This document shows, one piece after another, positions 699 to 55,225 of a stretch of 64,000 bases of DNA (within the stretch, counting starts at the first letter, position 1; the number at the start of each line of letters is the position of its first letter). The stretch covers positions 770,445-834,444 of the forward strand of contig OZ252239.1 of the NCBI GenBank assembly GCA_965249485.1, given 5' to 3'. The notes beneath the pieces are model-generated. The model searched no databases and had not been told where the DNA came from. It saw only the letters and a list, made by a program, of their open reading frames with translations. A program made the position numbers and the translations under genes. This DNA comes from a bacterium. Lineage in GTDB: Bacteria; SM23-31.

Positions 699-1058
699 GT
701 GATTATATTTAACCATATGGTTAAATATTCTACCAACACACTCAATGCAACATTCGGAGCACTTGCCGATCCGACCCGGAGAGCAATACTGCAGCGTCTT
801 GCAGGCGGTGAACAAACCGTTATGGAACTTGCAGTACCGTTTGAAATGTCTCTCCCTGCTGTGTCCAAGCATCTCCGGGTTCTTGAACATGCCGGACTTT
901 TGATTCAGATAAAGGATGGCAGGATCCGTCGGTGCCGTCTTGTTGCGAAACCGATGAAAGAAGCGTCAAAATGGATTGAACACTACAAAACGTTCTGGGA
1001 AGCACAGTTCGATTCATTAGAGCAGTTCTTCATCAAAAACCAAAAAAAGGATAAATAA
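699..1058 (+). CDS. arsR: ArsR/SmtB-family metalloregulatory transcriptional repressor; alternative start at 717
   Basis: HTH signature LADPTRRAILQRLAGGEQTVMELAVPFEMSLPAVSKHLRVLEHAGLL. 119 aa. TAA stop. Confidence 0.85.
   Translation: MIIFNHMVKYSTNTLNATFGALADPTRRAILQRLAGGEQTVMELAVPFEMSLPAVSKHLRVLEHAGLLIQIKDGRIRRCRLVAKPMKEASKWIEHYKTFWEAQFDSLEQFFIKNQKKDK
705..728. promoter_or_regulatory. Perfect 24-bp palindrome ATATTTAACCAT|ATGGTTAAATAT overlapping the arsR start region; putative ArsR/SmtB operator for autoregulation
   Basis: 12+12 inverted repeat read directly from the sequence. It is centred on an in-frame ATG (717-719) of the ArsR ORF, about 10 bp downstream of a TTGACA motif at 683-688. 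Confidence 0.5.
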
Positions 1059-1059
1059 A

Positions 1060-1512
1060 ATGGACGCAACCATAAATATCTCCGATACATCACTCCAATT
1101 GAAGAGGACATTTCCGGTACCCTGCGAAAAAGTTTTTGATGCCTGGAAAGATCCCGAAAAACTCCGGCAATGGTTCGGCCCGAATAAATTTACTGTACCC
1201 GAAATTGAGGTCGATTTCCGTGTTGGTGGGTCCTATAGTGTTATTATGCAGTCACCTGAAGGTGAACAACACCATGTGGCCGGTTCATATCAGGAGATTA
1301 TCGAAAACAAAAAGATTGTCAAGACATGGATTTGGCAAAATGGTGCAATGGCAGGAGTAGAGACGACGGTTACGATTGAGTTTAATGCACTCGATGATAA
1401 TACCGAAGTTGTTCTGACACATGAAGGATTTCCGAATGAGGACGCTGCCGGCCATCACAATAAAGGCTGGACAAGTATTTATGATAATCTCGAACAGTTT
1501 TGCAAACAATGA
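1060..1512 (+). CDS. SRPBCC-family (Aha1/AhSA1-like) protein, commonly co-operonic with ArsR regulators
   Basis: KVFDAWKDPEKLRQWFGP ... VDFRVGGSYSV ... TWIW pattern typical of Aha1-domain SRPBCC proteins. Starts 2 nt after the arsR stop. Ends with TGA. Confidence 0.8.
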   Translation: MDATINISDTSLQLKRTFPVPCEKVFDAWKDPEKLRQWFGPNKFTVPEIEVDFRVGGSYSVIMQSPEGEQHHVAGSYQEIIENKKIVKTWIWQNGAMAGVETTVTIEFNALDDNTEVVLTHEGFPNEDAAGHHNKGWTSIYDNLEQFCKQ

Positions 1513-1515
1513 CAG

Positions 1516-1948
1516 GTGCAAATAATGCCGGAAATACTCCATAAGCTACTGATCAAAAGACCACCCGAAGTGGTATATGAAGCGATCACAACACAGGACG
1601 GTTTGGCCTCCTGGTGGACACGGGATTGTGTTGCTGTTCCCGAAGAAGGTTCGGTCGCTGAGTTCTATTTTGATAACAGATCTGATTTCGGAAAGATGAA
1701 AATTACGAAACTCGAAAAGGATACTTGCGTATCCTGTGGTCTGTATCGACAGTGTTGATGAGTGGAAAGGCACCACAATTGTTTTTAAATTGTCTTCTCA
1801 TACTAAAGGATCAATGCTTTTCTTTTCTCATAACGAGTGGAAATCAACCGAAGGAATATTCCCTAACTGTAATTATGACTGGGCACGGTATCTTCTAAGT
1901 CTAAAAAAATATTGTGAAACGGGGATTGGGGAACCACATCCAGGTTAA
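1516..1948 (+). pseudogene. Second tandem SRPBCC/Aha1-like gene, disrupted by frameshift(s) near 1700-1760
   Basis: N-terminal ORF (PEVVYEAITTQDGLASWWT) and C-terminal ORF (DEWKGTTIVFKLS...FSHNEW) lie in different overlapping frames (1516..1758 and 1736..1948). A third frame encodes RILWSV between them. Confidence 0.55.
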
Positions 1949-5581: not shown

Positions 5582-5725
5582 TTATATTTTCCTACTGAAG
5601 GCAAATTCCTTGTCCATAGTGTAGATAACCGGTAGAACGATCAATGTCAGGATAGTCGGTGACACAATGCCGCCAGCCATCGGCACGGCGGTCCATTTTC
5701 AGACGTGCAATCCTGCCAATCTACT
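5582..5725 (-). pseudogene. Remnant 3' end (about 40 codons) of a second HME-RND (CzcA/CusA-like) pump gene
   Basis: Minus-strand translation KWTAVPMAGGIVSPTILTLIVLPVIYTMDKEFAFSRKI* aligns with the C-terminus of the intact pump at 7110-7230 (WKRIAAPMIGGIVTSTILTLVVIPVIYAIVRE...). About 75% nucleotide identity. Preceded by an in-frame TGA, with no upstream gene body. Confidence 0.6.
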
Positions 5726-6983
5726 TCACAAAGGTAACTTTTTTCGAAATTATTCGGTCTTGTGATTTTAAAACTATTAACTAGACCACTCCGGCAGCAA
5801 CGTTTCCCGAATCCGTTTTACCGTTCCACTTGACTGTGTGGATACCCTGTCCAAACTTATTCTCAGTTATTGTACTCACGAGCTGTCCGGTAACGTTAAA
5901 GATCTGTATAGAAACATCTGTCTGTTTTGCGAGAGAAAATTGTATTGAGACCGATGGATTAAACGGATTGGGGTACGCTTCGATAAGACCAAAATCTTCG
6001 GGAATAATAACATTTTCAGACTCATCTATATTGGTTACTAATCCTTTGAACACAGCTACATAATCATACACCTCGGAAGATACGAGAGAAAAATTATTTT
6101 TGTCACTATTGTGTTCAATAGAGCCATTGAACGGTATCCAAGCATTTGTATTCCCATCCCAATAGCAGAGAATCAATTCATCATCTTGTATAGACAGACT
6201 GTCGAGTAAGTTTTGACTGTAATGAAATCTTTGGGTTATACCCGTCTCAAAATCCATGTGACCGGAGCCCCAATGTCCCATATGACCTCCCATAATATGT
6301 CCACCTCAGTTACCATGCATCATATCATTGCCGGATTCATTGATAAATTCAAAATGATACCCGAGTACCATCTCACGGTCGGGACTTTCAGGCATGAGGT
6401 CTAATGGCAGCCTGTTCATATCGACAAAATATTTGTTTCCCCACATACCTCCAAAACCCATATGTCCCGGTGGAAAATTGATAAAACTTGCGCTATCAAC
6501 CGGACAATATATGTAAGTGGAATCAGTTATTACTCTATCAATCCAACTTCCCGACCAATGGTTCCCTTCGGAGAGATCCCGCCAAATAGCACCATTTAAC
6601 TCCTCGACGATAATAACCACGTAACCGTTAAATGAATCATGGACTTTGCCGGATACAGTTATTGATTCCCCATGATTGGGACAGTTAATCGTTTCTGGTG
6701 TATACCACCATGGTCCGAAAGCAAGCATGTAGTCGGTGTTTAAATCAAGATTTGTGTCGAGAAAATAGTGAGGCATAAATCCATTTTGCTCAATAATTAC
6801 GGATCCGGAAACAGTCGTATCCGGCAAGTTCTCTCCAAAGAAATAGTTATATCCATTTTCATGAATACCGCTGCTATGCTGTGGCTCAAAATGGTATTCA
6901 GACTCCTGAGCTCCAGCAGTAGTCGCTAATAAACAAATACAGATAACTGTAACAGATATGGCCCTTTGTATTGCGAGTAACAT
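5721..6983 (-). pseudogene. Secreted Met/His-rich putative copper-binding protein with a T9SS C-terminal sorting domain; the reading frame is interrupted by in-frame TGA (6306-6308) and TAG (5781-5783)
   Basis: ORFs 6306..6983 and 5781..6293 are in the same frame, separated only by TGA: ...GNDMMHGN*GGHIMGGHMGHWGSGHMDFE. The same frame continues past TAG at 5781 as LIVLKSQDRIISKKVTFVK*, the typical KK.hhhK end of T9SS CTDs. N-terminal signal peptide. CTD motif YPNPFNPSVSIQFSL. Confidence 0.55.
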
Positions 6984-7109
6984 TGTATTGCTCTTTCTTA
7001 AATAATAGACGTAAAGTCAAAGCCTCATAATAGTTTGATTCATCAAATTTAAATTAGTTACACACTTCAGAAAGATAAATTAACATATCTACTTGTGACA
7101 AATGAATTA

Positions 7110-12211: not shown

Positions 12212-13534
12212 TTATAAACGCTGACCTGTCAGAAACTCCAGGTTTGCGATATTTTTCTTGTATTCCGTCAGCAATCGGTAATAATCGAGTTCAAATGTTA
12301 AGAGTGTAATCTGGTTGTTTAAAAGGGTCAGAAAATCGACCTTATTGACTTGATAACCAGAAATAGCTGAACTCAATGACTGTGTGGCCTGCGGAATAAT
12401 GACCTCATGAAGCAGTTGTATCCGTTCATCTGTCTCATCAAGTGAGGCGGTTACAACTGCGATTCGGGCGTCGTTCGAATTTTTCATATCCTTGTATGAA
12501 GATTCTGCCGCACGGACTTCTGCCAGTGCTTCTGAAACACCGTTGTCTTGTTTTCTACCGCTCCACAGCGGCAGATTTACCGAAAAATGTGCTGAAAGGA
12601 AATCCGGACGCTGTTGACGCTGCCCGTAGATTACGCCGAATGTCATGTCAGGCCAGTATTGTTTTCGTTTGAGTGATGATGCAATTTCTCTTCGGGCAAC
12701 CTCTTTTCGTGCTGCATTCAACATGGGCCGCCGTTCTGCCGATGTCTGCTGCAGTGTTGCAATATCGAGCGAAACGGAAGAATGAGTTAGTTCTTCTACA
12801 GGACCGATTAGTATGTCTATCGGCCTGTTCAGGAGTGCATTAAGTTCAGCAGTGGAGGCTTCACGATTGTTCCGGTAGCTTATCAGTTTGTCGAGCAGTT
12901 TACTCATCTCAACCTGCGCTTTCAGCACATCCTGTTGTAGCCCTTCACCGACTTCATATTTTTTCGATGCAATTGAAATAAAATCGTTTAGTATCTGCTT
13001 ATTTTTGAGCGTGATAGCAACCGATTTGTCAATCAGGTAGATATCAAAGAACGCCAACGAAATGTCTTTAATTACAGCGTTTCTCGTGTCGACAGCCGTT
13101 AGTCCCGCGATGTCGAATGCTTCCTCGGCTATCTGCTCTTTCAATGATGATATACCGGGAAAAGGGATAGTCTGCTTCAGGGAAATCTGTTTTTGCGTCA
13201 TAGGTTCTACTGTAAATCCTGCATCAGTCAAAGGGAAATTTGCGATGTTCAGGCTCAAGCTTGGATCAGGCCATGCGCCTGCCTGCGGAATGCGCAGTTG
13301 TGCCGATTCACTTTTTTGATCAGCGGCGAGTATCTCAGGATTATCACGGAGCGCAGCTTCAATCAGGCTTTCAAGTGCTACTACGGCACCATTGTTGTTT
13401 TCGACTGAATACGTTTTTGTCGTACCTGCTAAAGCAAAGTCGATAACAGCGTTATGCTGTTGAAATGCATAGCCGGTGCGGGTCAAAACGGAAACCAACA
13501 TGATAACGGCAGTCAAAACTTTTTTTGATCGCAT
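12212..13534 (-). CDS. cusC: TolC-family outer-membrane efflux protein (CusC-like)
   Basis: 440 aa, signal peptide, two TolC-type coiled-coil repeats. Immediately upstream of cusB on the same strand. Confidence 0.85.
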   Translation of the reverse strand: MRSKKVLTAVIMLVSVLTRTGYAFQQHNAVIDFALAGTTKTYSVENNNGAVVALESLIEAALRDNPEILAADQKSESAQLRIPQAGAWPDPSLSLNIANFPLTDAGFTVEPMTQKQISLKQTIPFPGISSLKEQIAEEAFDIAGLTAVDTRNAVIKDISLAFFDIYLIDKSVAITLKNKQILNDFISIASKKYEVGEGLQQDVLKAQVEMSKLLDKLISYRNNREASTAELNALLNRPIDILIGPVEELTHSSVSLDIATLQQTSAERRPMLNAARKEVARREIASSLKRKQYWPDMTFGVIYGQRQQRPDFLSAHFSVNLPLWSGRKQDNGVSEALAEVRAAESSYKDMKNSNDARIAVVTASLDETDERIQLLHEVIIPQATQSLSSAISGYQVNKVDFLTLLNNQITLLTFELDYYRLLTEYKKNIANLEFLTGQRL

Positions 13535-13702
13535 TGTATCTGTTCCTGGATATTATTAATGAATACTGGTTTCAACCGGGATATATACTACCGGTTGAGA
13601 GATATACACTATCAATACTCGCGCAGGGTAAATGAACAAACATTACTCCCGTACTTTCGTAGAGTAGGTATAATGGTGTAATAATAGAAAAGGGGGTGCC
13701 GC

Positions 13703-14179: not shown

Positions 14180-14768
14180 TTGTTTACTATTGTAAAACAA
14201 TTTCGAACACAAAAAAACTACAACAACCGTGCCATTGTCAAAATCGGCACATCGTGTGCGTAACTACAGGTTAGATGCCTCAAAATATAAAAGGTTACAA
14301 TTAAATTTGCAAGAACAATTATTATAAATAAGAATTTGTGTACGTTTTCTTCATTGATCGTTCACTGGTATGGTATAGTTCCCGTCTAGCACACCGAAGT
14401 CACTGCCCCAGCTTCATTGGTGATCTCAATTGTGTCTAATGATGTGGTCTCTTTAAATTAATTGTACAAATATGTAAGTAATTTAGTATTTCTTTATTAT
14501 TGAAAACTGAAAAAAGGCATAAATCGTTCCATTATTCAAAATATCATACAGTATTGGCCAACTGAAAAACGGAACTTGACAATGGGAAATATGTTTTGTC
14601 AGTAAGCGACATGCAAATCATTAATGATTATAATGCGAGTTCTTGTAAGAGGAAAATGTCCTTTTCATAAATAGTAGGCTTATCATCTCACGTTCTACCG
14701 TCAAGAAGTCTTCCTGCTTTCTTTTTATTGGTGCCGCCTCATTGCATAAAGAAAAATTATTACTCAAA

Positions 14769-16118
14769 TTAGTTTAAGCTGCAAAATTCCTTAACTACAT
14801 TGTAATAAACCTGTATCGCACTCTTGATACTCTTTTCACGCACCCGCTCGTCGTTCCCGTGGATTGTGCTATATTCTTCCATTGTGACGGGACCAGGGAA
14901 GAAGCCGTAACAGGTTGCCCCTTTGAGTCGGAAAAACCGCGAATCAGTTCCGTAAATGATGAGATGAGGCAGCGTAATCGAATTCGGATAGACCTTTTTA
15001 GTCTCCTGCTCGATGACACGGAACAGGTCGGTGTCGAACGGTGAAACCACTGATTCGCCCGGTGCATCGATGATATCAAACCTTATTCTCGGATCGTCGA
15101 TGATCTGTTTCAGTTCATCCATAAACGCCTCAACATTCTGGTCGGGAAGAAGACGGCAATCGAGCACCGCTTCGGCATGATCGGGAATAACATTCGATTT
15201 CGGCGGATCACCCACATAGCCCTGTATAACCGTCAACGAGATTGTATTCCGCCGGAGTGCATTGTTGTAGGGTGTATCGACAAGTTCTCCGAGACGTTTG
15301 ATCATTTCAGCAACGACCGGATTGATCTGTACAGGAGTTTGGTAAGTAGCCAGCCTTGCGAGTGCCTGTGACAGAATAAAATTTGCATTACTCTTCGGCG
15401 GCATCGAACCGTGTCCTTCGGTGCCATCCGCAATCAGTTTCAACCAGAGTACTTTCTTTTCTGCAACACCGACGGAAAAAATGAGCCGGTCATCATTGGT
15501 GAAAAAACCCTGTGTGCCGAAACCTCCCTCATCGAATACAAATTCAGCATCGATATCATCCCACAAATTCTCGGCGACCCATTCTGCGCCAAGCTTGCCG
15601 AGCATTTCCTCATCGGCAACAGCGGTTAAAACCACATCCCGGTCAAGCTGAATTTTATTACGCCCGAGCAATACCATCGTCATAAGCTGCATGATACCGA
15701 AATTTTTCATGTCGAGTGCACCCCTGCCGTAGAGATATCCATCCCTACTGACACCCGCAAAGGGATCAACCGACCACCCTGACCGGTCAACGGGAACCGT
15801 ATCGAGGTGGTTCAGCAACATAAGCGGCCGTTTATTCCCGGTACCTTTGATCCGAGCGACAACATTAACTTTACCGTTCGCTCGGTCTGTCCAGTGCAGG
15901 TCAGTTTCAATGCCGGCATGTTCAAGAACTGTCCGGTAAAATTCCGCCGCTCCCGACACGTCGCCCGGCGGATTAGCGGTATTGATCGAAAGGTATTCGC
16001 GAAACATACTGACTGTTTCATCGCCAACTGCCTCCCAGTCCTGACCCGCGGCAATATTCGTAAGCATTATCATTATGACGAAATTTGTGACAAAAGAAGT
16101 ACACAATAAACGTATCAT
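14769..16118 (-). CDS. M20/M25/M40-family metallopeptidase (dipeptidase/carboxypeptidase-like)
   Basis: 449 aa, signal peptide. LNHLDTVPV, GRGALDMK and dimerisation-domain motifs of the M20 family. Confidence 0.85.
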   Translation of the reverse strand: MIRLLCTSFVTNFVIMIMLTNIAAGQDWEAVGDETVSMFREYLSINTANPPGDVSGAAEFYRTVLEHAGIETDLHWTDRANGKVNVVARIKGTGNKRPLMLLNHLDTVPVDRSGWSVDPFAGVSRDGYLYGRGALDMKNFGIMQLMTMVLLGRNKIQLDRDVVLTAVADEEMLGKLGAEWVAENLWDDIDAEFVFDEGGFGTQGFFTNDDRLIFSVGVAEKKVLWLKLIADGTEGHGSMPPKSNANFILSQALARLATYQTPVQINPVVAEMIKRLGELVDTPYNNALRRNTISLTVIQGYVGDPPKSNVIPDHAEAVLDCRLLPDQNVEAFMDELKQIIDDPRIRFDIIDAPGESVVSPFDTDLFRVIEQETKKVYPNSITLPHLIIYGTDSRFFRLKGATCYGFFPGPVTMEEYSTIHGNDERVREKSIKSAIQVYYNVVKEFCSLN

Positions 16119-17164: not shown

Positions 17165-18301
17165 CTAATTAAACTGTTTATTAAAGATTGGCAGAATCTG
17201 CAGACCTTTCGGGTTGCTTGCAATGTAGTTCAGGAGACCGATCTGAAGGCCGTCAACGCTGTCGGCATAATTAAAAATACCAAGCGTTACACCGTTGACG
17301 AGTCCCTGAATATAATTAACCGCACTCACAGAAAACCCTTCCATAACACCATTGTATTCCGGATTGCGGATAGTAACAAACAAGACAGATGCGGCTGCCC
17401 CTTTGATATGCCTGCCGCTTCCGACACCGATACCAGCAGCGCTGAGACCGGAAAGTTTATTTCCGGCGCCGACGAATAATCCGCCAAGACTGATACCGGT
17501 AATATCGTTTCCGGCACCAACAAAGAATCCTGAGTTGGCAAAACCGAGGATGTCGTTGCCTGCTCCAGTTGCAAATCATGATATTGCAATGCCTGTTAAA
17601 TCGTTTCCGCTCCCGATAGCGAACCCGGCAGTACCGTATCCCTTAAAATCGTTACCACTTCCAGCCGCAAATCCGGCAAGTGCAATTCCCTGAAAATCGC
17701 TTCCGCTGCCGGCAGCAAATCCCGCTAGCGCGACTCCCTCAAATAATTTTCCGCTTCCAACAGCAAACGGGGAAATTCCTAAGCCTCTAAAATTATTGCC
17801 ACTCCCGGTCGCTAACAGTGCACTTGATATTCCCGTAAACTGTTCTTCGGCTCCGCTTGCCAGCAAACCAAGTCCGATTCCGGTAAACCGCTCAGGTTGT
17901 TCAAGACCGATAACATTCAGCATGAGTCCTGACACGTCCTGGCCGCGCGTTCCGACACCACCGACGGTTATTCCCTTGATAATTCCTGCGTCCGGTGCCC
18001 AGATTCCTATCGCACCGCCTTTAATAATTGCATCTTCATTTTTTTTCGGCTTCCAGAGTGTAATATTCAGACCGGTCATCCGTTCGAGGCCATTATCACG
18101 GTAGTTGATTCGGAGTCCCGTGAATCGCAGTGAATTGCCGAAGCTAACCCCTTTACCGTTTACACCGATATCGACACTCTGCGAAGAGTCCTGCTCCTGT
18201 GCGTTTAAATTATCAGAGAAGGTAATATAACTCAATATAAACAAAGCAAGAATTATTACTGGTCGATTCACGATTACGGCTCCAATTTGATTTTTGATCA
18301 A
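17165..18301 (-). pseudogene. Gly-rich 16-residue-repeat secreted/outer-membrane protein with a C-terminal GLQIGLLNY module; interrupted by in-frame TGA at 17576-17578
   Basis: ORFs 17576..18301 and 17165..17383 share a frame. Repeats G.(A/S)..GF.(A/V)G(S/A)GNDF.G continue across the stop, and the TGA occupies the conserved Gly position of the repeat (GGA to TGA). Confidence 0.6.
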
Positions 18302-18525
18302 TCATATGTGAGACGCGGCATAATACATCATTCGTATTGATGAACGCTCTTAAACAGTTAATGTAATAGTTATCTATTGTAAATTCAATAATATTGTTGC
18401 CCCAATATAATTCATTGACGTAACAAATATATTACGGTGTCATTTCAAAGCGAAGTCCCGACTATATCACTATAATCAGGAATAAAGTGGCGTGATCTTA
18501 TTTTTTGAAAGTACGTTTTGAATTT

Positions 18526-21794: not shown

Positions 21795-22035
21795 ATCTAC
21801 TAAAAACTATTTCAAATATATCTCCAACCAAGCAGCCTGTTCCTTATCATTGATAATCCTATGGAATGGTTCACGGATGCCCTGTCCTTCCAACGGAAAC
21901 CGGATAAATTTGACCGTTTTGCCGTGTTTTTCAAAGCTGTGTAGTACTCAATCGCCTGCGATACCGGCACAACAGGGTCGTCATCGCTGTTGATAATGAG
22001 CAGGGGAGTGGTCACGTTCGAAATAAGATTCACCG
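21795..22035 (-). pseudogene. Frameshifted C-terminal fragment of a second S9 peptidase paralogue
   Basis: VTTPLLIINSDDDPVVPVSQAIEYYTALKNTAK, then in another frame FIRFPLEGQGIREPFHRIINDKEQAAWLEIYLK*, matching the C-terminus of the intact S9 peptidase at 18526-18760. No upstream catalytic body. Confidence 0.6.
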
Positions 22036-22299
22036 GAGAATATTTATCTTACAAATTGAATGCACAAATATAATGAATAATAAAAGGTGAAACAACATTC
22101 ATAATACAAAAATATTTTATTCACCTTATCCTTACTTATTGGTAGTTTGGCGTGTGTGCATATTGGAAAAAGATTGGATAATTCTCCTCTGTACCCTCAC
22201 TTTAAAAAAAGTTTTTGCATTTATGCTTCTTTCTGATTACATTTTTTTTTCAAACCCACCCTTTGTAACGTAACCCGCCGTGAGCTTTGGAGGTAGATA

Positions 22300-23380
22300 A
22301 TGGCTTTGCAGAATTCAGAAGAACAAGCTGCAAAAACTGAAGAAAAAACTGCTCAGGATGTCCTGTATATAGGACTCGATCTTGGCACATCACAAAGTGC
22401 AGTAGCAACCAACACCGGAATTCTGGTTAACACTGCCAGTGTTGTTGGATGGCCAAAAGACCTGATATCTTACAAACTGCATCAGAAAGCAGTCCTGTTT
22501 GGTGACGAATGTGTACGAAACCGAATGTCGGTAGATGTTTTTTATCCGCTTGAGAAAGGTGTCATTTCCACATCGTCCAAGGGGAAAAAAACTGACGATT
22601 CCGAACGGAAAGATACTGCACCTGGTGAGTTTATTCGGCATATGATAACGCTTGCTGAACCGAATCAAAATCAGCAGAAATTTCTTGTTGTCGGTGTGCC
22701 TGCGGAAGCTTCTGTTGAGGATAAACAGGCCATTATCAATACCGCTGCTGGTCTGGTTGATTCTGTTCTTGTTGTTTCTCAGCCATTCCTCGTCGCGTAC
22801 GGTCTCGGTTTGTACGGTTTCTCACTTGTTGTCGATATCGGTGCCGGAACGACCGATATTTGCCGCATGCACGGAACAATACCTGAAGAATCCGATCAGA
22901 AAACCTCATTCAAAGCGGGTACTCACATCGATTCACTCCTATTTGATCTCCTCAGATCAAAATATCCGAAAGCCAACATCACAAAAATGATGGCGCAGCA
23001 TTTTAAAGAGAAATATGCGTTTGTCGGCAATATTAATGAACAGATTTCGGTTGAGCTCAACATTGGTGGAAAAAACAGGACACTACGATATTACAAAAGA
23101 AGTAAAAGATGCGTGTGAGAATATTGTACCTGACATTGTGGCGACGCTCAGGCACCTGGTATCAAGTTTCGATCCTGAATTTCAGGATGAGCTCAGAAAT
23201 AATGTGCTCTTTGCGGGATGCGGAAGCAGAATTCGCGGACTTTCTCAGTTGGTAGCATCAGAGCTTGCTGATCTTGGACCGATTAACACCCAAATCGTTG
23301 AAGACCCGGTTTATGCCGGCGCTTTCGGAGCGCTCCGGATTGGCCAGGACATGCCCCTCAGTGAATGGAAACATATGTAG
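22300..23380 (+). pseudogene. MamK-like actin-family ATPase (actin/MreB/ParM superfamily); frameshifted in an A6 run at 23070-23075
   Basis: YIGLDLGTSQSAV (phosphate-1), VVGVPAEAS, VDIGAGTTDI, FAGCGSRIRGL, and overall collinearity with MamK. ORF1 (22300..23118) and ORF2 (23015..23380) overlap in different frames. Deleting one A of GGAAAAAACAGG restores ...IGGKTGHYDITKEVK. Confidence 0.75.
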
Positions 23381-25741: not shown

Positions 25742-25939
25742 CCGGCTTCTTGGAGCAAGACCGGATGAAAAACGATAGTTATATAAGCATCATTTTACGC
25801 AACCTGTTCATCAGATCCATTGCAATTTAGTATCTCCCTATACAAGGGTACAGCAGACTTTTTTCGTACACCAATCAACAACAATAATACTCACAGAATG
25901 CCCCGATCTAATCTATGCGGATTGTACATCCCTTGAAAG

Positions 25940-27247
25940 TTGAAAAAAATGGTTTGTCCAAAAAACTTTAATCGGATACTGTTTACCATTCTTGCTTTAG
26001 TGTTGCTGCCTCTGAGCTCATCATTTGGGCAAAACGAGACGGTAAAAGTTTTGACGGTGGAAAGTGCAATAACGCCAGTAAGTGCTGAATATATCATGAA
26101 AGCGATTGAGCAGGCAGAGTTGGAAAACGCCGAGTGCATCATCATTCAACTCGATACACCCGGCGGTCTGATGACTTCAATGGAAGATATCATCAAGAAA
26201 ATATTAGGATCACAAGTTCCCGTAATTGTTTATGTGGCCCCGAGCGGTGCAACCGCAGGTTCAGCCGGAGTGTTTATCACCATGTCTGCTCACATTGCAG
26301 CGATGGCGCCGGCAACGAACATCGGTGCAGCCCATCCAGTCAGTCTCGGATCTCCAGTCGATACGGCGAGTGTCATGGAAGAAAAAATCACCAATAACGC
26401 CGCGGCATATGCCCGCTCTATTGCCGAGAAAAGGGACAAAAATGCGGATTGGGCGGAAAAAGCAGTGCGCGAAAGTGTTTCGATTACGTCGAACGAAGCG
26501 CTCGAAATCGGTGTAATTGACCTCATTGTCCCGACAGTCGATTCTCTACTTTCCGCGATAGACGGCAGGGAAATTGAAGTAATTCTCGGCACCAAAACGC
26601 TCAAAACAAAAGAGGCGCGAATCGAAGAAATTGAACTCGGTTTGCGGTACAGGATACTCTCCCTGATTGTCGACCCGAATATAGCTTACATATTCATGAT
26701 GCTCGGTATGGCAGGTGTAATGCTTGAACTCTACAATCCAGGCTCGATTTTCCCTGGAGTCATTGGCGGTATTTCTCTTATTCTTGCCTTTTACGCGATG
26801 CAGACACTGCCCGTTAATTACGCTGGGCTCTTACTCATAATTCTTGCTGTTGTACTCTTTATTCTGGAGGTCAAAGTGACAAGTTTCGGAATGCTGACGG
26901 TCGGCGGCATTGTTGCGCTTACGTTAGGTTCGGTTATGCTGTTTGATTCCCCGGAAGCAATTCTGCGTGTTTCCTGGAAAGTGATAATCCCGACAGTGAT
27001 GTTGACGGCGTTATTCTTTAGCATCATTATCGGTCTTGCAATCAAAGCGCAAAAAAGACGTCCTTCCATCGGGAATGAAGCTTTAATCGGGGAAACGGGA
27101 GTCGCTCAGACTCGAATCAGGAAAGAAGGCCAGATATTGCTGCACGGCGAGATTTGGAAAGCAACAAGTGAGGATACAATAAAAAAAGGTGACTCGGTAA
27201 AGGCGATCAGCATTAAAAATCTCGAAGTGAAAGTGGAAAAAATTTGA
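25940..27247 (+). CDS. NfeD-family membrane-bound ClpP-class serine protease (stomatin operon partner)
   Basis: Signal peptide, ClpP-like domain (GGLMTSMEDI, SGATAGSAG), TM segments, C-terminal OB-fold. Followed by a stomatin gene. Confidence 0.9.
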   Translation: MKKMVCPKNFNRILFTILALVLLPLSSSFGQNETVKVLTVESAITPVSAEYIMKAIEQAELENAECIIIQLDTPGGLMTSMEDIIKKILGSQVPVIVYVAPSGATAGSAGVFITMSAHIAAMAPATNIGAAHPVSLGSPVDTASVMEEKITNNAAAYARSIAEKRDKNADWAEKAVRESVSITSNEALEIGVIDLIVPTVDSLLSAIDGREIEVILGTKTLKTKEARIEEIELGLRYRILSLIVDPNIAYIFMMLGMAGVMLELYNPGSIFPGVIGGISLILAFYAMQTLPVNYAGLLLIILAVVLFILEVKVTSFGMLTVGGIVALTLGSVMLFDSPEAILRVSWKVIIPTVMLTALFFSIIIGLAIKAQKRRPSIGNEALIGETGVAQTRIRKEGQILLHGEIWKATSEDTIKKGDSVKAISIKNLEVKVEKI

Positions 27248-27345
27248 TAGTCCGGGTACAATCTGAACATTACGTAAATATACCACATAGATTATAATAA
27301 CTCCATATTCAGCAGTACTATTCTCCAATGAGAAAGGAGTAAATC

Positions 27346-28887: not shown

Positions 28888-29321
28888 GTAATGATTTCCT
28901 GAAAGTCAACAATTTTCATATACATTCTGATAATTATTTTCTGATTCCTCAAAACACTATAATCAAACTGTCACTCCAGCTGGAATTCTAACAATCTACC
29001 GGGACGAAATGGAGAAATCTCAACATTAATGATTATTTTATAAAAAGTCATTCGAGATCATCATTCTGTAAGGGGCCGAGCATCTGACGAGGAGTTTATA
29101 ATTTAAAGAAAAGAGCTATATTCTAAATAATTAAGAAAACAAGTCCATAATGATTAGATATATGTTTTAAACACGGGTCTGAAAACTTTAAAACGAGTAG
29201 TATTAAAAAAAAACGTGCAAATATAATAAAAACCTCACTATATTTTATAAAGCACATATATCATTCCTTACATTATAGACATTTTCTTACTCCTGACTAT
29301 CCCGAGAAAGGAGATAATATC

Positions 29322-29959
29322 ATGGGTATGTGGTCTACATTTGTCGATGTAATCCAGAACGGTATCCTTGTATTTACCAATGTCTTCGGGGGGAGCATGG
29401 GTACGGCGATCATTGCTGTCTCACTGCTCATTCGCATGGCATTGTTCCCGCTCACACTAAAGCTCGCACATCGTTCTTTCATTCGTAACAATATGCTCAT
29501 AAAACTGAAACCAGAACTTGACACGTTGAAGATACATTTCAAGAATCAACCGGACCGGTTAACCCGCGAGACCATGAAAGTTTTCAACCGCAACGGGATC
29601 AAAATGGTTGATACGAGCAACTTGTTTGGTGGCCTGATTCAGGCCCCAGTTTTTGTGGTCTCTTCTCGGCAATACGAAATATTATCACTGGAGGCGGTCG
29701 ATTTGTCTGGATAAAAGATATAGCAAAACCCGACTTTTTGCTGACACTCTGTGTCACGTCTATAGCAGTATTTGCCGCTTCTCTCAACCCGAATCTTGCT
29801 GAACACAACCGGATGCTGCTTATTATGCTACCAGCTGTAGGGACACTCTTTTTTCTCTGGTACAACTCTGCAGGAATCGCTCTCTATTGGGGTACGACAA
29901 GTTTTGTTACCATTATTCAAAATGGTATCATCATGCATAAAGCAAAACATACGAAATAA
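29322..29959 (+). pseudogene. yidC: Short YidC/Oxa1-family membrane insertase, frameshifted near a T5 run at 29650-29654
   Basis: ORF1 ...LIRMALFPLTLK...LIQAPVF, then in the -1 frame ...GLFSAIRNIITGGGRFVWIKDIAKPDF (the FLWIKDLS motif), continuing into ORF2 29738..29959 (LYWGTTSFVTIIQ). Adding one T restores a single ORF. Confidence 0.7.
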
Positions 29960-30117: not shown

Positions 30118-30470
30118 ACCCGGAGCGTGGAAAGATGGCCGCGTTTCCCGATTATTTGGGAGATGAGGAAAGTCCGAACTCCACAGGGCAGGATGCCCCG
30201 TGAAAACGGGGTCGTTCCGGTTCACCGGAATGCAGGAAAGTGCCGCAGAAAATATACCGCCCCGTTCCTCGGAATGGGGTAAGGGTGAAAAGGCGAGGTA
30301 AGAGCTCACCGCGTTTTCGGTAACGGAAACGGCAGGGTAAACCCCATCCGGAGCGAGACCAAATAGAGGAGAAGAGGCTGCCCGTCTCATTTGACTCCCG
30401 GGTAGGTCGCATCAGATAAATGGCCATCCGCGACAGAATTCGGCTTACCGAGCGCTTCGGGTTTAGTATA
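30118..30470 (+). ncRNA. rnpB: RNase P RNA (bacterial type A)
   Basis: Conserved blocks GAGGAAAGTCCG, AGGGTGAAAAGG...GGTAAGAGCTCACC, GGTAAACCCCATCCGGAGC...CAAATAG, ACAGAATTCGGCTTAC, all in canonical order. No credible ORF across it. Confidence 0.85.
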
Positions 30471-30492: not shown

Positions 30493-31608
30493 ATGAATAA
30501 TAAATCCTTATTCTCATACATTGTAGCATTATTCGTGCTATTTTTTTGCATATCATGCAACCGCGACGTCAATCCCGATACACAACAGAAAATCGATGAA
30601 TTGTCAGCACAGATGCCCGATCTTATGCGAGGCTATTATGTGTCTGGTGTTAGCGTGGCGGTTGTCAACAATTTTGAACTCGAATGGACTCAGACTTATG
30701 GTGTTACCGATATAATCTCCAACGCACCGGTAACCGACCGGACACTGTTTCAGGCCTCTTCCGTTAGTCAGAGTTTCACCGCTATGGCGGTGTTAAAACT
30801 TGTGCAAGACGGAAAACTTGACCTTAACACCGCTATCAATGAATATCTTGAGTCGTGGTCGGTTCCGGTAAGTAGCACAGGAACAATGCCCCGTCTCTCT
30901 CTGAAAAGCCTGTTAAGCAGGTCACTTGGCGCCTCAAGTAAAAAGGTAAAGGGTTATGTGTTGACAGAACCGGTTCCTTCTGCTGTTGGATTTCTCGATG
31001 CAGCTTACCGGGGTAATCCTGAACAGAATAGCCCACTGATCAACAACAGTTCACTTGTTGAAGATTATACAATTGTGCAGCTTGTGGTGTCTGATATTTC
31101 CAAGAATCCGTTTCACTCGTTCATGCGTTCAACAATCCTCTCTCCTTTACGGATGGACTATTCCACGTTTGATCAACCACTACCCGAAAGTCTTCTACAG
31201 TTTGCCGCTCTGGGTCATTATGAAAACGGTTCCCTGCTTGAGGAGGGGATGAATGTATTTCCACATACCGCTGCAGCCGGTCTCTGGACGACACCGCACG
31301 ATCTCTCCCGGTTCATCATCGAAATTCAGAAAACGATTCGAGGAGAATCGGAACAAGTTCTTACTCAGGAAATGGTTCAGACTATGCTGACTCCGGCATC
31401 GTCAGGAAAATTTGCACTTGGAAATGTCATATCACAAAAAAATGGCGGCAGTTATTTTGGTCACAGTGGAGCAAATGAAGGGTATACCTGTGAATATTTC
31501 GCCTCCCGAGACGGTGGATATGGTGTTGTCGTCATGACAAACGGCGGTAGAGGTGTCCGACTTGGAAGAGATATTATTCAAAAAATATTCAATCTCTATG
31601 AATGGTAA
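30493..31608 (+). CDS. Serine hydrolase of the beta-lactamase/transpeptidase family (class C-like)
   Basis: Signal peptide, S-x-x-K motif (ASSVSQSFTAM) and a YxN-like motif. 371 aa. Confidence 0.85.
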   Translation: MNNKSLFSYIVALFVLFFCISCNRDVNPDTQQKIDELSAQMPDLMRGYYVSGVSVAVVNNFELEWTQTYGVTDIISNAPVTDRTLFQASSVSQSFTAMAVLKLVQDGKLDLNTAINEYLESWSVPVSSTGTMPRLSLKSLLSRSLGASSKKVKGYVLTEPVPSAVGFLDAAYRGNPEQNSPLINNSSLVEDYTIVQLVVSDISKNPFHSFMRSTILSPLRMDYSTFDQPLPESLLQFAALGHYENGSLLEEGMNVFPHTAAAGLWTTPHDLSRFIIEIQKTIRGESEQVLTQEMVQTMLTPASSGKFALGNVISQKNGGSYFGHSGANEGYTCEYFASRDGGYGVVVMTNGGRGVRLGRDIIQKIFNLYEW

Positions 31609-31639
31609 TAATATGTTTGCAAAAGCGAGGAGCAGCACC

Positions 31640-32367
31640 ATGAATAAGCTAATAAATTTCTTTCTATCTATTTTCCTCTGCCTGATTTTTACGGACAATC
31701 TCAGTGCACAGTACGGATCAGACATAATAGAAACTTCAGATAGTGATTTGGAAGTTACATTTTTGGGACACGGTTCACTTCTGTTTGAGTATGACGGTCT
31801 CATAATATATGTTGATCCATCGGGATTACAGAGTACTGAAAATCTCCCGAAAGCAGACCTGATACTTATAACTCATGAGCACGGTGATCATTTTCGTCCG
31901 GAACTCATTGATGAACTGCGGAATCATTCAGCCATTGTGATTACAAATGAACGATGTGCTGAACGTGTTGACGGTGCAATGATTATGAAAAATGGTGATA
32001 CACGTACCATTATGGGACTTTCTATCGAAGCGGTACCGTCATATAATCTTGTGCATAAAAATGAGTCGGGTGTGTTTTTCCATCCAAAAGGGCGGGATAA
32101 TGGTTATGTTATAACTTTCGGTGATACATGAGTTTATTGTGCAGGAGATTCCGAAAAATGAAGGCGCTCAAGGAAATTGATGTTGCTTTTCTTCCAATGA
32201 ATCTGCCCTATACAATGACTCCCGAGATGGTTGCAGATGCTGCTCAGAATTTCAAACCCTCAATTCTCTATCTCTACCATTACAGAAATGGTGATACGGA
32301 AACATTAGAGCAATTGATGGAAAATGTGAAAGGTGTAGAACTTCGTATCAGGAAAATGTACAACTAA
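31640..32367 (+). pseudogene. MBL-fold metallo-hydrolase (secreted), disrupted by in-frame TGA (32129-32131) and a one-base deletion in an A run (32154-32158)
   Basis: ILITHEHGDHF metal-binding motif. ...GYVITFGDT*VYCAGDSEK, then a frame shift to MKALKEIDVAFLPMN... (compare the paralogue's TTVYHAGDT...[10 protein letters not shown]). An A6 run in place of A5 would give GDSEKMKALKEID. Start at RBS GAGGAG plus ATG 31640. Confidence 0.7.
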
Positions 32368-35009: not shown

Positions 35010-35507
35010 TGTTGTCATATTTATTCCGTATTTCTTAGAAAATCCTGTATTTTAAGATTAATTCGTTTTTTCATCGTTAGAATTCAGAATAATCCTACCA
35101 AAGAATTTACTTTCATTAACGTGTTATCAATTCATTCTCCGTAAGTTTATAGATCCTTTATGATTAATTCATCTGGAGTCATTTCCAATCATTATCCTCA
35201 AACAGAATATCACTATCCTGATCGGGATGTTCTTTGTGTTCATGAAACCATTGGTCAGAATATCGAATTGAATTCCTTTTGGAAAGGCAGTGCATACAAA
35301 TTCCCTTTCCCTTTTTCAATTGACTTTGCTCCTGCCATTAAATATATTTTTGACACTTTATATTCTGAACCAAAACAACACTGAATGGATCGGTTAACCG
35401 GAGTTTCAATATTATTTAAAACAAAGCGCAGAAAACTTAATATAATTAACTGAGTTTTGCTACTATAACCTGATATTTTTCATTATCATTACTATCCTTT
35501 AACCACT

Positions 35508-36527
35508 ATGAAAACGTCATTGATACCTGAACAAATCTGGGGACAGCTTGAATCGGTTATCCAAGACAACACATCATTCACCATCACGTCACATGTCAAT
35601 CCGGATGGAGATGCCGTCGGATCGGAACTTGCACTCTATAACTTTCTGACAAAAAAGCGTAAAAGAGTCAGAATAATAAATTGTAACTCTCTTCCGGTAG
35701 TCTATCACTTTCTCACAGAATCTCAGGAACTGTATCGTGAATTTTCAGAAGCAGATAACGACTGGATAAACGGATGTGATGTCATTTTTATACTCGATAT
35801 CAGCAATAAAGACCGACTGAGCTGAATGCAGCCGATTATATCGGGGAGTCCGGCTTACAAAATCTGCATTGACCATCATGAGGACAACAATCTTGATGCC
35901 GAATTAAAAATCACCTCCGAATCGGCGAGTGCTACTGCTGTGTTAATATATGATCTGTTAATAAACTTGAAAGCTGCCATCGACCAGGAGACGGCAATGG
36001 CACTTTACGTCGGAATATTGACCGACACAAATTCATTTTCCGAGCCGAATACAACATCCCGGGCGCATGAAGTTGCCTCCGAATTGATGCAGTACGGTAT
36101 CCGGTCTGAGGAGATATACCGGAAAATATTTCACATCAACAGCTGGAATCGAACAGAATTATTTAAAGATACACTTGCAACGTTGTCGAGCAGCTGCGGA
36201 GGGAAGCTCGCATGGATGAAAATAACCAGAGAAATGGTTGAAAAGAGTGGAGCGCTCCGTGAGGAAATCGAGGGATTCGTGGACTATCCGCTCACCATTG
36301 ACGGAGTGCAGATTGCCATTCTATTTCTTGAAATTCCGGGAACGGGTACAAAAATCAGTCTCCGGGCAATAAACTCACTCAATGTTCACGAGCTCACCCA
36401 AAGGTTCGGGGGAGGTGGTCACCGTCATGCTGCGGGGATTCGGCTTTACGAAGTATCTATTGACAAAGCGATAACACAGGTACTTGATGAAGCATGTCGC
36501 TACTTTAACAGTCAGAAAAGTCAATAG
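35508..36527 (+). pseudogene. nrnA: Bifunctional oligoribonuclease/pAp-phosphatase NrnA (DHH-DHHA1), interrupted by in-frame TGA at 35823-35825
   Basis: DHH motifs HVNPDGDAVGS and ICIDHHEDN, DHHA1 GGGH. ORF1 ends ...ILDISNKDRLS*, and the next codon is the ATG of ORF2 (MQPIISGSPAYKICIDHH) in the same frame. Collinear with intact NrnA. Confidence 0.8.
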
Positions 36528-38487: not shown

Positions 38488-39183
38488 TTGTCAATTGTGC
38501 AGTGGAAAGAACTCATGAACATAGAGTTTTGCGGACATTCCTGTTTTCTCTTGAGTGAGGGAAGACATTCGGTTATCATCGACCCATTTTTGTCCGGAAA
38601 TCCAGTAGCAGTGCGAAAACCGGAAGAGGTCAGCGTTGAGGCTGTTCTGCTGACACATGGCCACGGCGATCATATTGGCGATGCCATAGCAATTGCACAG
38701 AGAAACAATGCAACGATTATAGCACCATACGAACTTGCGACGTACAGCGAAAAAAAAGGAGCGCAAGTTCATCCGATGCATATAGGTGGTGGGCATGATT
38801 TTCCGTTCTGTCGGGTGAAACTGACGCAGGCATGGCACGGATCTGCTGTATTTGGTGACGGTGATATTCCAATTTACACGGGAAATCCGTGCGGAGTTAT
38901 CCTGTGACTATGGGCAGCACAACAGTCTATCATGCAGGAGATACAGGATTATTCGGAGATATGAAACTGATTGGCGACAGGAACGAAATCGATTGTGCAA
39001 TTCTGCCGATTGGTGACAATTTTACGATGGGAATCGATGATGCGCTTTACGCGCTTTAATTATTACAACCGAAAAAAGTGATTCCTATGCATTATGACAC
39101 GTTTCCGGTCATTGAAGTCGAGGTAAGTGATTTTACGGATGGGGCGAAGCAGAAGGGATATGATTGTATCGTGCTGAAACCGG
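38488..39183 (+). pseudogene. MBL-fold metal-dependent hydrolase (UPF0173-like), disrupted by a frameshift at about 38905 and an in-frame TAA at 39057-39059
   Basis: LLTHGHGDHIGD motif. After ...GNPCGVIL the homologous sequence continues in the -1 frame ([50 protein letters not shown]). TAA then follows in-frame: LLQPKKVIPMHYDTFPVIEVE...VLKPGESTAL*. Confidence 0.75.
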
Positions 39184-39386
39184 GCGAGTCAACAGCACTC
39201 TGACATTCTATGCTGTAGCGTAGTATTGTTCGTTCACGTTTTATAAAACATCTATCAATCCGTGGTAATGGTAATGCAAACACATAAGATTTTTCAATAA
39301 GGTCATTGCGTCTTCATGACCTTTTTGCATTTTTGAGAGGGCAATGTGTTGACATTATTCCCGTGATTTCTGAAGAAAAGACTGTT

Positions 39387-42283: not shown

Positions 42284-42294
42284 TTTAACAACAC

Positions 42295-43331
42295 ATGATA
42301 CACAATATATTACATAGATTACGAATTTCCGGCTTACTTACCGTCGGAATAGTTATTGTGCTGTCGAACATTGCTCCGGCAAATGCACAAGAGGGATTGA
42401 ATCACGAAAAAGAAAGCAGTATATCAATTACAACTGCTGCATATGAAGAATTTGATGCCAACCTGATTCCGTCACCGCTCTTGAAAGTAAATACAGCAAA
42501 AATCAGCCATTTTCTGCTCGTCGACAAATCGAAGCAAGATCTGTATCTTTATAAATATGACGGACGATTCCACAGGATTAAGACATACGATTGTACAACC
42601 GGAGCAAATCTCGGTGATAAACGGGAAACCGGTGACTTGAAAACCCCTGAAGGTATTTACTTTTTTACCGATGTTTGGGAAGAAACCGATCTTATCAGGC
42701 GGTATGGAAAAATGGAAGCAGCACAGTATGGTGTCCGCGCATTCAATACCAACTATCCGAATGTGATTGATAAACAGAACAATAAGAACGGTTATGGCAT
42801 CTGGCTCCATGCATCAGATAAACCAGAACGGATAAAACAACCGTACGACACAATAAAGGATGCATTGTTGTCCGTAACGGAGATATGGACGATCTCACAT
42901 CCTATATCTCACTTGAAGAGACACCGATCATTATCGTGAAAAAACTTGATTTTCTTCGGGAAGATGCAGTTGAGCAGGAGCAGGAGCGGATACTGCAATA
43001 TATCGAAGCATGGCGTTCGAGCTGGGAGTCGGCAGAAATTGAGTGGTACCGAGAGTTTTATTCGCACCAATTTCTTAGTAATGACCGTACTTATGACGAA
43101 TGGGTTGACTACAAACAGTTGATTTTTCCAAACTATTCGTGGATAAAGATTGCACTCTCCGATTTTCAAATTCTCAAATTTGATGACTATTATTTGGTTG
43201 AATTTCATCAAAACTTTCAATTGGATATTTATACAGATTCGGGTAAGAAAAAGCTTTATATCAATAATGACGGTGAGAATCTGACGATAATTTCTGAACT
43301 TTGGGATGCCGGTGGCGCCGGTATAAATTAA
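42295..43331 (+). pseudogene. L,D-transpeptidase (YkuD family) with a C-terminal NTF2-like domain; frameshifted between His and Cys of the catalytic motif (A-run at about 42834)
   Basis: Signal peptide. ...YGIWLHAS in ORF1, and the catalytic NKGCIVVRNGDMDDL only in the -1 frame leading into ORF 42885..43331. Inserting one A in GATAAAACAACC restores ...ERIKTTVRHNKGCIVV. Confidence 0.7.
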
Positions 43332-44137: not shown

Positions 44138-44218
44138 ATTGGATGTGAATAACTGAGTTCGGAGAGCTGAGACAATCATTATTTTCATCAGAATTGCCTT
44201 ATCAGTATTAAAATCAAA

Positions 44219-46074
44219 GTGATGCTTATAAAATCCACATATGACCTGATCTTTCTTGCAAGGAGAATATTCACAATTATCGGATTGTGTGCAGGCATGA
44301 TAACAATAGTGTCATCACTGCAAGCGAATACGTTGCTGGAAGTGTATTTCAAAAACACGGAGTATGAACTCAATATTTACCGGATTTCCGGTACTGAGCC
44401 CGGTCCCACGATACTTATTATCGGCGGTATCCATAATGAGCCGGGTGGGTACCTTACGGCAGACTCATACGTTGATATAGCACTTAAGCGAGGAAATCTT
44501 ATTGTTGTGCCGCGCGCAAACTTTCAAACAATTATCGAAGATGTGCGGGGTGTTTTGGGAGACATGAACCGGCTGTTCAATCTTGATGAACCGCGATTCG
44601 AAAACGACCATGCAATGGAAATAGTTGAAATTCTCAAAGGACTTATTGCCGAAAGTGATATGATGCTCAACCTGCACGACGGATGGGGGTTCTATAGAGA
44701 TGATTATATCGACGAAATGCACAATCCACTGAGGCTTGGTCAGTCTATTATTGCCGATACTGATGTTTATACCATTCCGGGATCAGATCAGCAAATTCAG
44801 CTTCGAAGTATCAGCGAAAAAATATGTACAACAGTAAATTCTCAGATTGAAAACGGAGAACACACATTTCGATTTAATAACCACAACACCTACTCGGAAG
44901 AGAGTGCACACACAGACCAGCGGGGTCTGCCACATTCTACGCGCTTTCGAGTCATCATATTCCGGCATTCGGTATTGAGACATCAAAAAACATAACAGAT
45001 GTTGAATTGCTTGTCCGGTATCAGACAATTGTTGTCAATGCATTTTTCGAGGAATTCGGCGTTATTCGCGATGTTGTCCGCAAACCGATTACGGAACCGC
45101 GACTGCTATTCATCGCAGCATCGATCAACGGTCATCAGCCCAGGTTGTTTCTCAATAATGAAACAGTGTATCTGAAACGTGGTGACACGGTTAATATTGA
45201 ACATATCGAAGCAAATTATGAGCGCGGTGTTTTTGCAGATATTGAACATTATGGCAATACGAACGATCTGGGGAACGATTTAGCGATTTTCAGTAATGCG
45301 TCAATTCTTGTTAAAAAAGATAATGCAACATTCGGCACAGTAAATATAGAAATATCCGAAAACGGTACGGAAGCAATTGGTGCAACGAACGGACACAATT
45401 CAGTACCCGTCGTGGAGCGGTTTATCGTCGATGTTAACGGGTTCATACAGGACATTCCGGCTTCGGGAACACTCACTATAGTAAAAGGGGATGTGGTGCG
45501 GCTGATCGATACAAGCCCGGCTATGGAAATATTTCCAAATGCGTATGTCAATCTTTTTGGATTCTGGTCAAAGGAGCAGCAGAAAAACACAGGTGACGAC
45601 CGGAATCTCCTGATTAACACATCGACCGATCTGGATTCGAAATATTCAGTGAGAGAACAGGGTGTAGAATATGAAATTCGATTGGAAAACGACTCGGAAG
45701 TGTTCTCGAAAATGCGGCTAAAATTGATCGAACCCGAGTTAAAACATCTTGTACTGAAATTTGATAACGGAAATATGGGGTATTTGAAAAACGGTGAAAC
45801 TTATACATTCTCCAATGAACATATATTTGAAATTGTAGATGTAAAAACAACAATACCTAACAACAGTAGTGTCCGAGTGAAAATCAACGGATTTGTTGGG
45901 AACGGTGTGGGAAGTGATATGTACACACCGATCGATATAGCAATGGAGCTTCTTCCTGAATATTCAGTCGATAAACATGGAAGGACCTTTGTGGTAGAAG
46001 TGCTCTACCGGGGAGAACAGATCGGAACAGCATATCTTATCCTCAGTAATGAAGTATACGAAAATAATAGATAA
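44219..46074 (+). pseudogene. M14/AstE-AspA-like zinc carboxypeptidase domain fused to a long beta-rich repeat region; frameshifted at a G4 run (about 44921-44924)
   Basis: GGIHNEPGG (HxxE zinc motif), and ...ATFYALSSHHIPAFGIETSKN (the sfTlE motif of M14) present only in the -1 frame continuing into ORF 45007..46074. Adding one G restores ...DQRGSATFYAL.... C-terminal region with three repeated about 50-aa modules. Confidence 0.65.
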
Positions 46075-50222: not shown

Positions 50223-50249
50223 GCACATTGCACATTTTTTCAGGAATCG

Positions 50250-55219: not shown

Positions 55220-55225
55220 CACAGG

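Follow-up and report, generated by a model that had tools for sequence, protein, structure and literature searches.

The closest described counterparts of the repeat protein analyzed here come from two bacteria, and neither has a known function. LA_2272 of Leptospira interrogans (LIC11665) is only listed as a predicted OMP or hypothetical protein (PMC5348505). VC2662 of Vibrio cholerae is likewise a hypothetical protein, which showed enrichment in the proteome of a delta-ompU mutant and whose deletion gave no phenotype (PMC10865864). Both LA_2272 and the protein described below are exported and without a known function, and the C-terminal motif of the latter is a borderline match to the LA_2272 repeat model. 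The likeness to VC2662 is weak and extends over the repeats; VC2662 proteins have about 187 amino acids, whereas members of the family described here have about 280-460.

The gene for this protein is interrupted by an in-frame TGA, and two kinds of known phenomena offer themselves for comparison. In genetic code 25 (Absconditabacteria/SR1 and Gracilibacteria), UGA is found in frame where Gly is expected, as it is in this gene. Low-coverage long-read (Nanopore/CLR) assemblies, on the other hand, contain single-base homopolymer indels that frameshift conserved genes, and also premature stops, and both are present in the DNA considered here, within otherwise intact genes of a single-contig MAG of 3.78 Mb. 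Homopolymer indels are the classic long-read consensus error, with about 40x coverage needed (PMC9262707), and premature stops that result from long-read consensus errors have been documented as well (PMC12007338).

The gene was analyzed together with the whole 64-kb stretch of bacterial DNA that surrounds it, hereafter called the window. Overall, the data suggest that the TGA is probably a consensus error in an intact gene, and that the gene belongs to a large family of exported repeat proteins. Coordinates of the gene, its parts and the other broken genes in the window are collected in Table 1.

Table 1. Positions of the repeat gene, of its parts and of other broken genes in the window
Feature	Positions	Strand	Remarks
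Stop-to-stop frame of the Gly-rich repeat protein	17165-18301	-	378 sense positions, counting the internal TGA; ends with TAG 17165-17167
In-frame TGA, codon 242	17576-17578	-	Repeat position 6; a GGA Gly codon is expected
Likely true start, GTG 18271-18269	18269-18283	-	GGAG at 18283-18280 upstream, 8-nt spacer; predicted from sequence
Sec-type signal peptide (MNRPVIILALFILSYITFSDNLNA / QEQ)	18200-18271	-	From sequence; cleavage site predicted
Conserved N-terminal region with degenerate repeats, residues 41-140	17882-18181	-	Homologue alignment
Ten regular 16-residue repeats, residues 141-300	17402-17881	-	Exact register, 48-nt period
C-terminal cap, most conserved part of the family	17168-17401	-	N344, G351, Q353, G355, N358 and P371 invariant
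T9SS-sorted secreted protein	5724-7016	-	TGA 6306-6308 and TAG 5781-5783; a single HSP with homologue P0341 covers both and extends to the end of its C-terminal sorting domain
MreB-like gene	22297-23380	+	Frameshift at ~23072-23091, A6 run in GGAAAAAAC; L001 orthologue residues 1-267 in frame +1, 263-363 in frame +2
yidC (60KD_IMP)	29154-29959	+	Frameshift at ~29650, GTGGTC versus expected GTGGGTC; Pfam positions 1-81 and 78-162 in successive frames
MBL-fold hydrolase	31538-32367	+	TGA 32129-32131; frameshift ~25 nt later (~32155), A5 run
nrnA (DHH/DHHA1)	35469-36527	+	In-frame TGA 35823-35825
UPF0173 metal-dependent hydrolase	38500-39200	+	Frameshift at ~38905; TAA 39057-39059
YkuD L,D-transpeptidase fused to Cds6_C	42289-43331	+	Frameshift at ~42860
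Peptidase_M99	~44900		Frameshift, probable only

The repeat protein and its family

Translation of the minus strand from 18301 to 17165 gave one frame of 378 codons, interrupted by just one stop. Although the first start-type codon past the upstream stop is the TTG at 18301, the product more likely begins with MNRPVIILALF..., from the GTG at 18271-18269. No lipobox Cys was found in the signal peptide; the N-termini of homologues are likewise hydrophobic and end in ...AQS or ...GQS. Residues that are invariant across the family within the N-terminal region are G51, S53, G55, S57, G62, R64, N66, G77 and N79.

The regular repeats follow the pattern G-x-x-x-x-G/x-F/L-x-x-G-x-G-x-x-x-x. Units 1-6 are GIGLGLLASGAEEQFT, GISSALLATGSGNNFR, GLGISPFAVGSGKLFE, GVALAGFAAGSGSDFQ, GIALAGFAAGSGNDFK and GYGTAGFAIGSGNDLT, and units 7-10 are GIAIS*FATGAGNDIL, in which the asterisk is the TGA, GFANSGFFVGAGNDIT, GISLGGLFVGAGNKLS and GLSAAGIGVGSGRHIK. 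Tandem repeat detection with TRF picks up only the two most similar copies. A preliminary description of this DNA had proposed a signal peptide, Gly-rich repeats of 16 residues and a C-terminal NYADSVDGLQIGLLNY module; all three are present, and the module is conserved. The repeat array that it put at about 12 units is better described as ten regular units with about 4-6 degenerate ones, which flank the regular array on both sides.

Searches of the protein against family models bear out the earlier characterization of an uncharacterized surface-repeat family. No Pfam family matched the repeat protein at E <= 1, and none of 76 homologues carries a precomputed Pfam domain. In NCBIfam, the LA_2272_repeat model (NF047436), which is 30 residues long, matched the ...VDGLQIGLLNY... 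segment of the read-through protein with 25.2 bits against a cut-off of 25, which is borderline; the match covers residues 351-369 (17195-17251), within the C-terminal cap. The same model gave 23.0 bits on the orthologue P0002, and 44 of 60 homologues matched it at E <= 1e-3. It spans about 20 residues here and leaves out the bulk of the protein, with its N-terminal region and its G-x-G repeats of 16 residues. The VC2662 model (NF047437) matched the repeat region with 36.4 bits (E = 3e-9), far from its equivalog cut-off of 140, so the protein is not a member. Fifty-one of the 60 homologues matched this model weakly as well, the best at E = 1.3e-13 and also far under the cut-off.

For the orthologue P0002, which is 55% identical to the target, the AlphaFold2 model reaches a pLDDT of 84.6 on average and of more than 90 in the repeats and the C-terminal region. 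Its strands are alternately 8 and 4 residues long, with a 16-residue period, and the repeat family is confidently predicted to fold as a beta-solenoid with 16 residues per turn. A Foldseek search of the model against PDB gave a best E of 2, the weak matches being other beta-helices; known folds of that kind include LbH acyltransferases, TpsA/haemolysin and ice-binding solenoids. A profile of the 60 homologues matched 8,773 representatives of clusters at 50% identity with E <= 1e-3, the weak end of the range, which Gly-rich composition may inflate; 3,988 representatives matched at E <= 1e-10 and 485 at E <= 1e-30. The family is thus large and has no Pfam model, solved structure or known function, and it may merit a family description of its own.

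The in-frame TGA and the reading of UGA

On the plus strand the TGA reads TCA, and the suspect base is the A at 17578. Codons at repeat position 6 are GGA, GGA and GGG in the three units before the stop and GGA, GGA and GGT in the three after it, i.e., Gly in every case, and the interrupted unit has TCA TGA TTT where the next unit has TCA GGA TTC. In the homologue alignment, Gly stands in the column of the stop in the closest homologues (P0001-P0003); P0008 lacks Gly there, and a gap is found in most of the remaining aligned homologues. The codons of neighboring repeats and the P0001-P0003 column agree that the TGA occupies the position of a Gly (GGA) codon, as had been suggested. That this Gly is invariant, however, was too strong a statement: six of the ten regular repeats have Gly at position 6, the first three have L, L and P, and the truly invariant glycines of the unit are those at positions 1, 10 and 12. 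One G-to-T change of GGA (C to A on the plus strand at 17578) would account for the TGA and is its obvious origin, judging from these codons.

In tblastn, the orthologue from the related sequence L001 matches 18283 to 17168 through the stop in a single frame with 55% identity. No decay is seen in the 136 codons that lie 3' of the TGA, and over the C-terminal 35 residues the protein is almost the same as P0001 and P0002.

A UGA that is decoded would yield the full-length protein, with Gly inserted as in code 25, Trp inserted by near-cognate readthrough, or selenocysteine. That the stop falls exactly on a Gly position favors such decoding, and the TGA at 6306 also lies opposite Gly, in the sole homologue and within a low-complexity stretch. 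Two of the four in-frame TGAs, however, lie opposite Arg in the nearest homologues (Arg or Lys at 32129, mostly Arg at 35823). Four in-frame TGAs per 64 kb are a mild excess over TAA and TAG, but these four occur in about 20,000 codons, the genes of 600-1040 codons in the window have no in-frame TGA, and TAA and TAG are found in frame as well. Moreover, TGA ends ordinary genes: a TGA-TAG tandem at 27245-27250 closes a gene of 436 codons (25937-27247), and other TGA stops in the window are followed by non-coding sequence. No UCA-anticodon tRNA is present in the window, whose four tRNAs are those for Pro, Arg, His and Glu. The base that follows the UGA at 17576-17578 is U, and in E. coli this base makes for strong termination at UGA. 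Considering this evidence, we regard decoding of this UGA as very improbable, and tests within the window gave no support for readthrough or recoding.

Two specific forms of decoding were rejected. A code 25-like assignment of UGA to Gly was ruled out since TGA is a normal terminator and in-frame TGAs are very rare and not consistently opposite Gly; in code 25, by contrast, UGA is not the working stop that it is here. The bacterium also differs from the small CPR genomes that use code 25 in its size (about 3.8 Mb), its GC content of 43%, its T9SS cargo and its KSB1-like homologues; the nearest named homologues of its nrnA are from candidate division KSB1. Selenocysteine was ruled out by the lack of both a hairpin after the UGA and Cys in homologues. 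The 76 nucleotides from the UGA fold with -19.1 kcal/mol (z = -0.51 versus shuffled sequences) and form no SECIS-like hairpin, Rfam gave no match within the repeat gene, and no homologue has Cys at the UGA site.

It is conceivable, if barely so, that the bacterium tolerates or decodes in-frame UGA at a low level, in which case the four TGAs would be genuine and the full-length repeat protein would be produced, with Gly or Trp at codon 242. This would be sense decoding of UGA outside CPR and Mollicutes, alongside termination at UGA. The locus would bear on stop-codon reassignment only if several of the TGAs were real and translated.

Gene-breaking defects across the window

The preliminary description held that the TGA, unless it is an error, cleanly exemplifies a nonsense mutation or a site of readthrough. 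This characterization is not supported by its surroundings, as the same 64 kb contain five more in-frame stops and at least five frameshifts. Confirmed gene-breaking defects number 11, spread over eight genes; with the probable frameshift in Peptidase_M99 the count becomes 12 in nine genes. With the total number of genes in the window put, very roughly, at 55-60, about 15% of them (about 1 in 7) are broken. Apart from its defect, each of these genes is intact, with conserved sequence on either side, and the defects must therefore be extremely recent or not real. They cannot all be biological, because they affect yidC, which is essential, and the housekeeping gene nrnA.

Individual cases illustrate the preservation of these genes. 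In the MBL-fold hydrolase, an alignment with a homologue in PDB (3kl7) spans both defects and places Arg at the TGA. The UPF0173 hydrolase, once repaired, matches TM_1162 (3x2z) end to end with E = 1.6e-71. In the YkuD protein, model positions 3-111 of 146 are found in the first frame, and the catalytic KGCIVV motif and Cds6_C in the next. In nrnA, the column of the TGA is occupied by Arg in 5 of 20 aligned homologues, including four of the six closest (three of which read DRLSRM), and by G, W, A, S, I, D or N in others.

The in-frame stops comprise TGAs at 17576 (Gly expected), 6306 (possibly Gly), 32129 (Arg) and 35823 (Arg or variable), a TAA at 39057 (Val or variable) and a TAG at 5781 (Ile/Tyr). 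Since TGA, TAA and TAG are each found in frame and the residues expected at them differ, no single recoding rule fits. The TAA and the TAG, identified by a coding-potential scan and homologue alignment, also rule out a pattern of TGA only. Among the confirmed frameshifts, three of five affect short homopolymers of A or G (A6, A5, and GGG to GG).

Five further stops and at least five frameshifts in conserved genes point to a noisy consensus, and sequencing error, which had been raised earlier as an alternative, is now the leading explanation, with many gene-breaking defects in the window. We infer that the plus-strand A at 17578 is itself probably erroneous, and that the window's own assembly is probably a low-coverage long-read assembly. 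In this scenario, a single-base error in a noisy long-read metagenome assembly would have placed an A for a C on the plus strand at 17578, and the true codon would be GGA. The intact gene would then encode an exported protein of about 368 residues, with a Sec signal peptide, the conserved N-terminal region, a solenoid of about 14-16 Gly-rich turns of 16 residues each, and a cap with a G-x-Q-x-G-L-x-N motif of the LA_2272 type.

The mix of defects differs from typical long-read errors in that stops of the substitution type (six) are about as common in the window as detected frameshifts (5-6). TGA accounts for four of the six stops (P ~0.02), whereas uniform random substitution on the codon usage of the window predicts 21% TGA, 43% TAA and 36% TAG. 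This excess is mild, and a biased error spectrum, e.g., C to T at CGA for the two Arg sites, could explain it. No shared motif, such as a methylation motif that leads to systematic miscalls, was evident around the four TGAs.

Six stops would correspond to some 150 substitutions over the approximately 50 kb of coding sequence, or about 0.3%. The two related genomes (OZ244870.1 and OZ251221.1) are single-chromosome MAGs, and the names of the relatives' contigs in ENA bear the strings "_9x_" and "_3x_". Between the 9x and 3x sister contigs we counted 96 substitutions and nine indel columns in 21 kb (0.45% substitutions, plus homopolymer indels), including a change in the length of an A run that splits an S9 peptidase; at one site a TGG of the 9x contig is a TGA in the 3x contig. 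The estimate of about 0.3% for the window is similar to the difference between these contigs and would be plausible for such data. At conserved columns of NrnA and of the repeat family, private substitutions in the window, taken as a measure of substitution noise, were not distinguishable from those in controls.

These observations call for caution with MAGs, in which in-frame stops should not be read as nonsense mutations or recoding before the quality of the surrounding consensus has been checked.

The locus in related genomes

The order S9 peptidase, repeat protein, bacterioferritin and M20 peptidase is shared by the window and two related contigs. In the closest relative (L003, about 90% nucleotide identity), about 5.8 kb of different sequence replaces about 1.5 kb of the window, and no copy of the gene was found at the syntenic site; L003 was therefore ruled out as a witness of the ancestral codon. 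Judged by this comparison, the repeat gene evidently lies in a variable region and is dispensable in the lineage. The window also holds a C-terminal fragment of an S9 peptidase at 21810-22048 and a DUF5131 fragment at 14631-14756.

Because the gene seems dispensable and is absent from the syntenic site of L003, the prior for a genuine loss-of-function allele is higher here than it would otherwise be. The TGA could then be a very recent, real GGA-to-TGA mutation in this strain, with a product that ends at residue 241 of 378 and lacks four repeats and the C-terminal cap, and one would be dealing with a pseudogene of recent origin or with a loss-of-function allele that is segregating. The locus is variable in other ways, too: the number of repeats differs by three units (48 amino acids) between two strains that are 99.5% identical. 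True gene remnants do exist in the window (the S9 peptidase and DUF5131 fragments), but the share of broken genes estimated for the window far exceeds the rate at which true pseudogenes occur as background. Nothing sets the TGA at 17576 apart from the ten or more defects nearby, and since these strike essential and housekeeping genes, they must mostly be artifacts. The lack of decay past the stop and the near-identity of the last 35 residues to P0001 and P0002 also argue against a genuine mutation, which we consider unlikely. Should the TGA nevertheless be real, it would mark an ordinary young pseudogene at a variable surface-protein locus.

The preferred reading, a consensus error, was also considered in the light of public sequences. 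No second copy of the TGA allele was found among public proteins, in which the best match is 60% identical, or by an exact-pattern scan of metagenome contigs. For nrnA, a public protein fragment (P0077), recorded from a single contig of 3,779,686 bp, is 100% identical to the part of the gene that follows the TGA.

Defects in conserved genes and excess of TGA

The strongest sign that assembly errors lie behind the defects of the window is that yidC, an essential gene, is broken. A frameshift near position 29650 splits it, the sequence having GG where GGG is expected. Other genes carrying frameshifts or in-frame stops are listed in the table, together with structural RNAs and gene remnants.

Features of the window and the defects found in them
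Feature	Position	Strand	Observation
Two adjacent SRPBCC/AHSA1-like genes	1021-1758	+	one frame, TGA between them
T9SS-sorted secreted protein	5724-7016	-	two in-frame stops
DUF5131 protein remnant	14631-14756	-	last ~40 residues
Second S9 peptidase remnant	21810-22048	-	C-terminal ~80 residues, in two frames
MreB-like gene	22297-23380	+	one frameshift
yidC (60KD_IMP)	29154-29959	+	frameshift
RNase P RNA class A	30121-30463	+	241 bits
MBL hydrolase	31538-32367	+	TGA and frameshift in A-run
nrnA	35469-36527	+	TGA in gene
UPF0173 hydrolase	38500-39200	+	frameshift and TAA
YkuD-Cds6_C	42289-43331	+	one frameshift
Peptidase_M99	~44171-46074	+	probable frameshift
TPP riboswitch	50143-50236	+	upstream of 803-codon gene (50297-52705)
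tRNA cluster (Pro-Arg-His-Glu)	54756-55220	+	four tRNAs

TGA makes up four of the six in-frame stops of the window, against a share of 21% predicted by uniform substitution (P about 0.02). This excess may stem from a bias in the error spectrum, or it may mean that some of the stops are genuine; no sequence motif was common to the surroundings of the four in-frame TGA codons in the window.

The T9SS-sorted protein consists of a signal peptide, a His/Gly/Met-rich middle part and a Por_Secre_tail domain. Its gene is interrupted in frame by TGA (6306-6308) and TAG (5781-5783), and the alignment with a homologue of this protein, P0341, spans both stops and reaches the C-terminus of P0341. In the SRPBCC/AHSA1-like pair, the second gene encodes only about 75 residues and may have been cut short by yet another defect.

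Comparison with related contigs

Two related contigs that carry an orthologue of the repeat protein, L001 (labelled 9x) and L002 (labelled 3x), were compared. In the gene for a B12-binding radical SAM protein, L002 has TGA (16068-16070) where L001 has TGG (15927-15929). This gene appears to be split in both contigs, with overlapping calls in L001, and is intact in the window (447 aa, 12212-13552). The repeat-protein orthologues differ by exactly three 16-residue repeats (L001 10614-10620 versus L002 10620-10758), i.e., by 48 aa (lengths of 386 and 434 aa), and outside this difference the two contigs are 99.5% identical. Either repeat-number variation or collapse of repeats in assembly could account for this.

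At the syntenic site, the closest relative (L003, from OZ244870.1, ~90% nucleotide identity) does not have the repeat gene. About 5.8 kb (L003 3336-9160) are found in its place and code for a TolB-like beta-propeller protein and for an SMC/AAA-like ATPase that is split into parts of 446 and 358 aa, and only fragments remain of the adjoining S9 peptidase. Relatives carry complete versions of the second S9 peptidase and DUF5131 genes, and the remnants of these genes in the window seem to be products of true gene decay or of rearrangement in a variable region.

Start of the repeat gene

On the reverse strand (18280-18305), the TTG at 18301 is preceded, 4 nt upstream, by an ATG in another frame, which is followed by an A5 run. 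If this run were one base too long, the repeat gene would begin at the ATG (MIDQNQIG...). A simpler start than this ATG is the GTG at 18271, which has a GGAG Shine-Dalgarno sequence.
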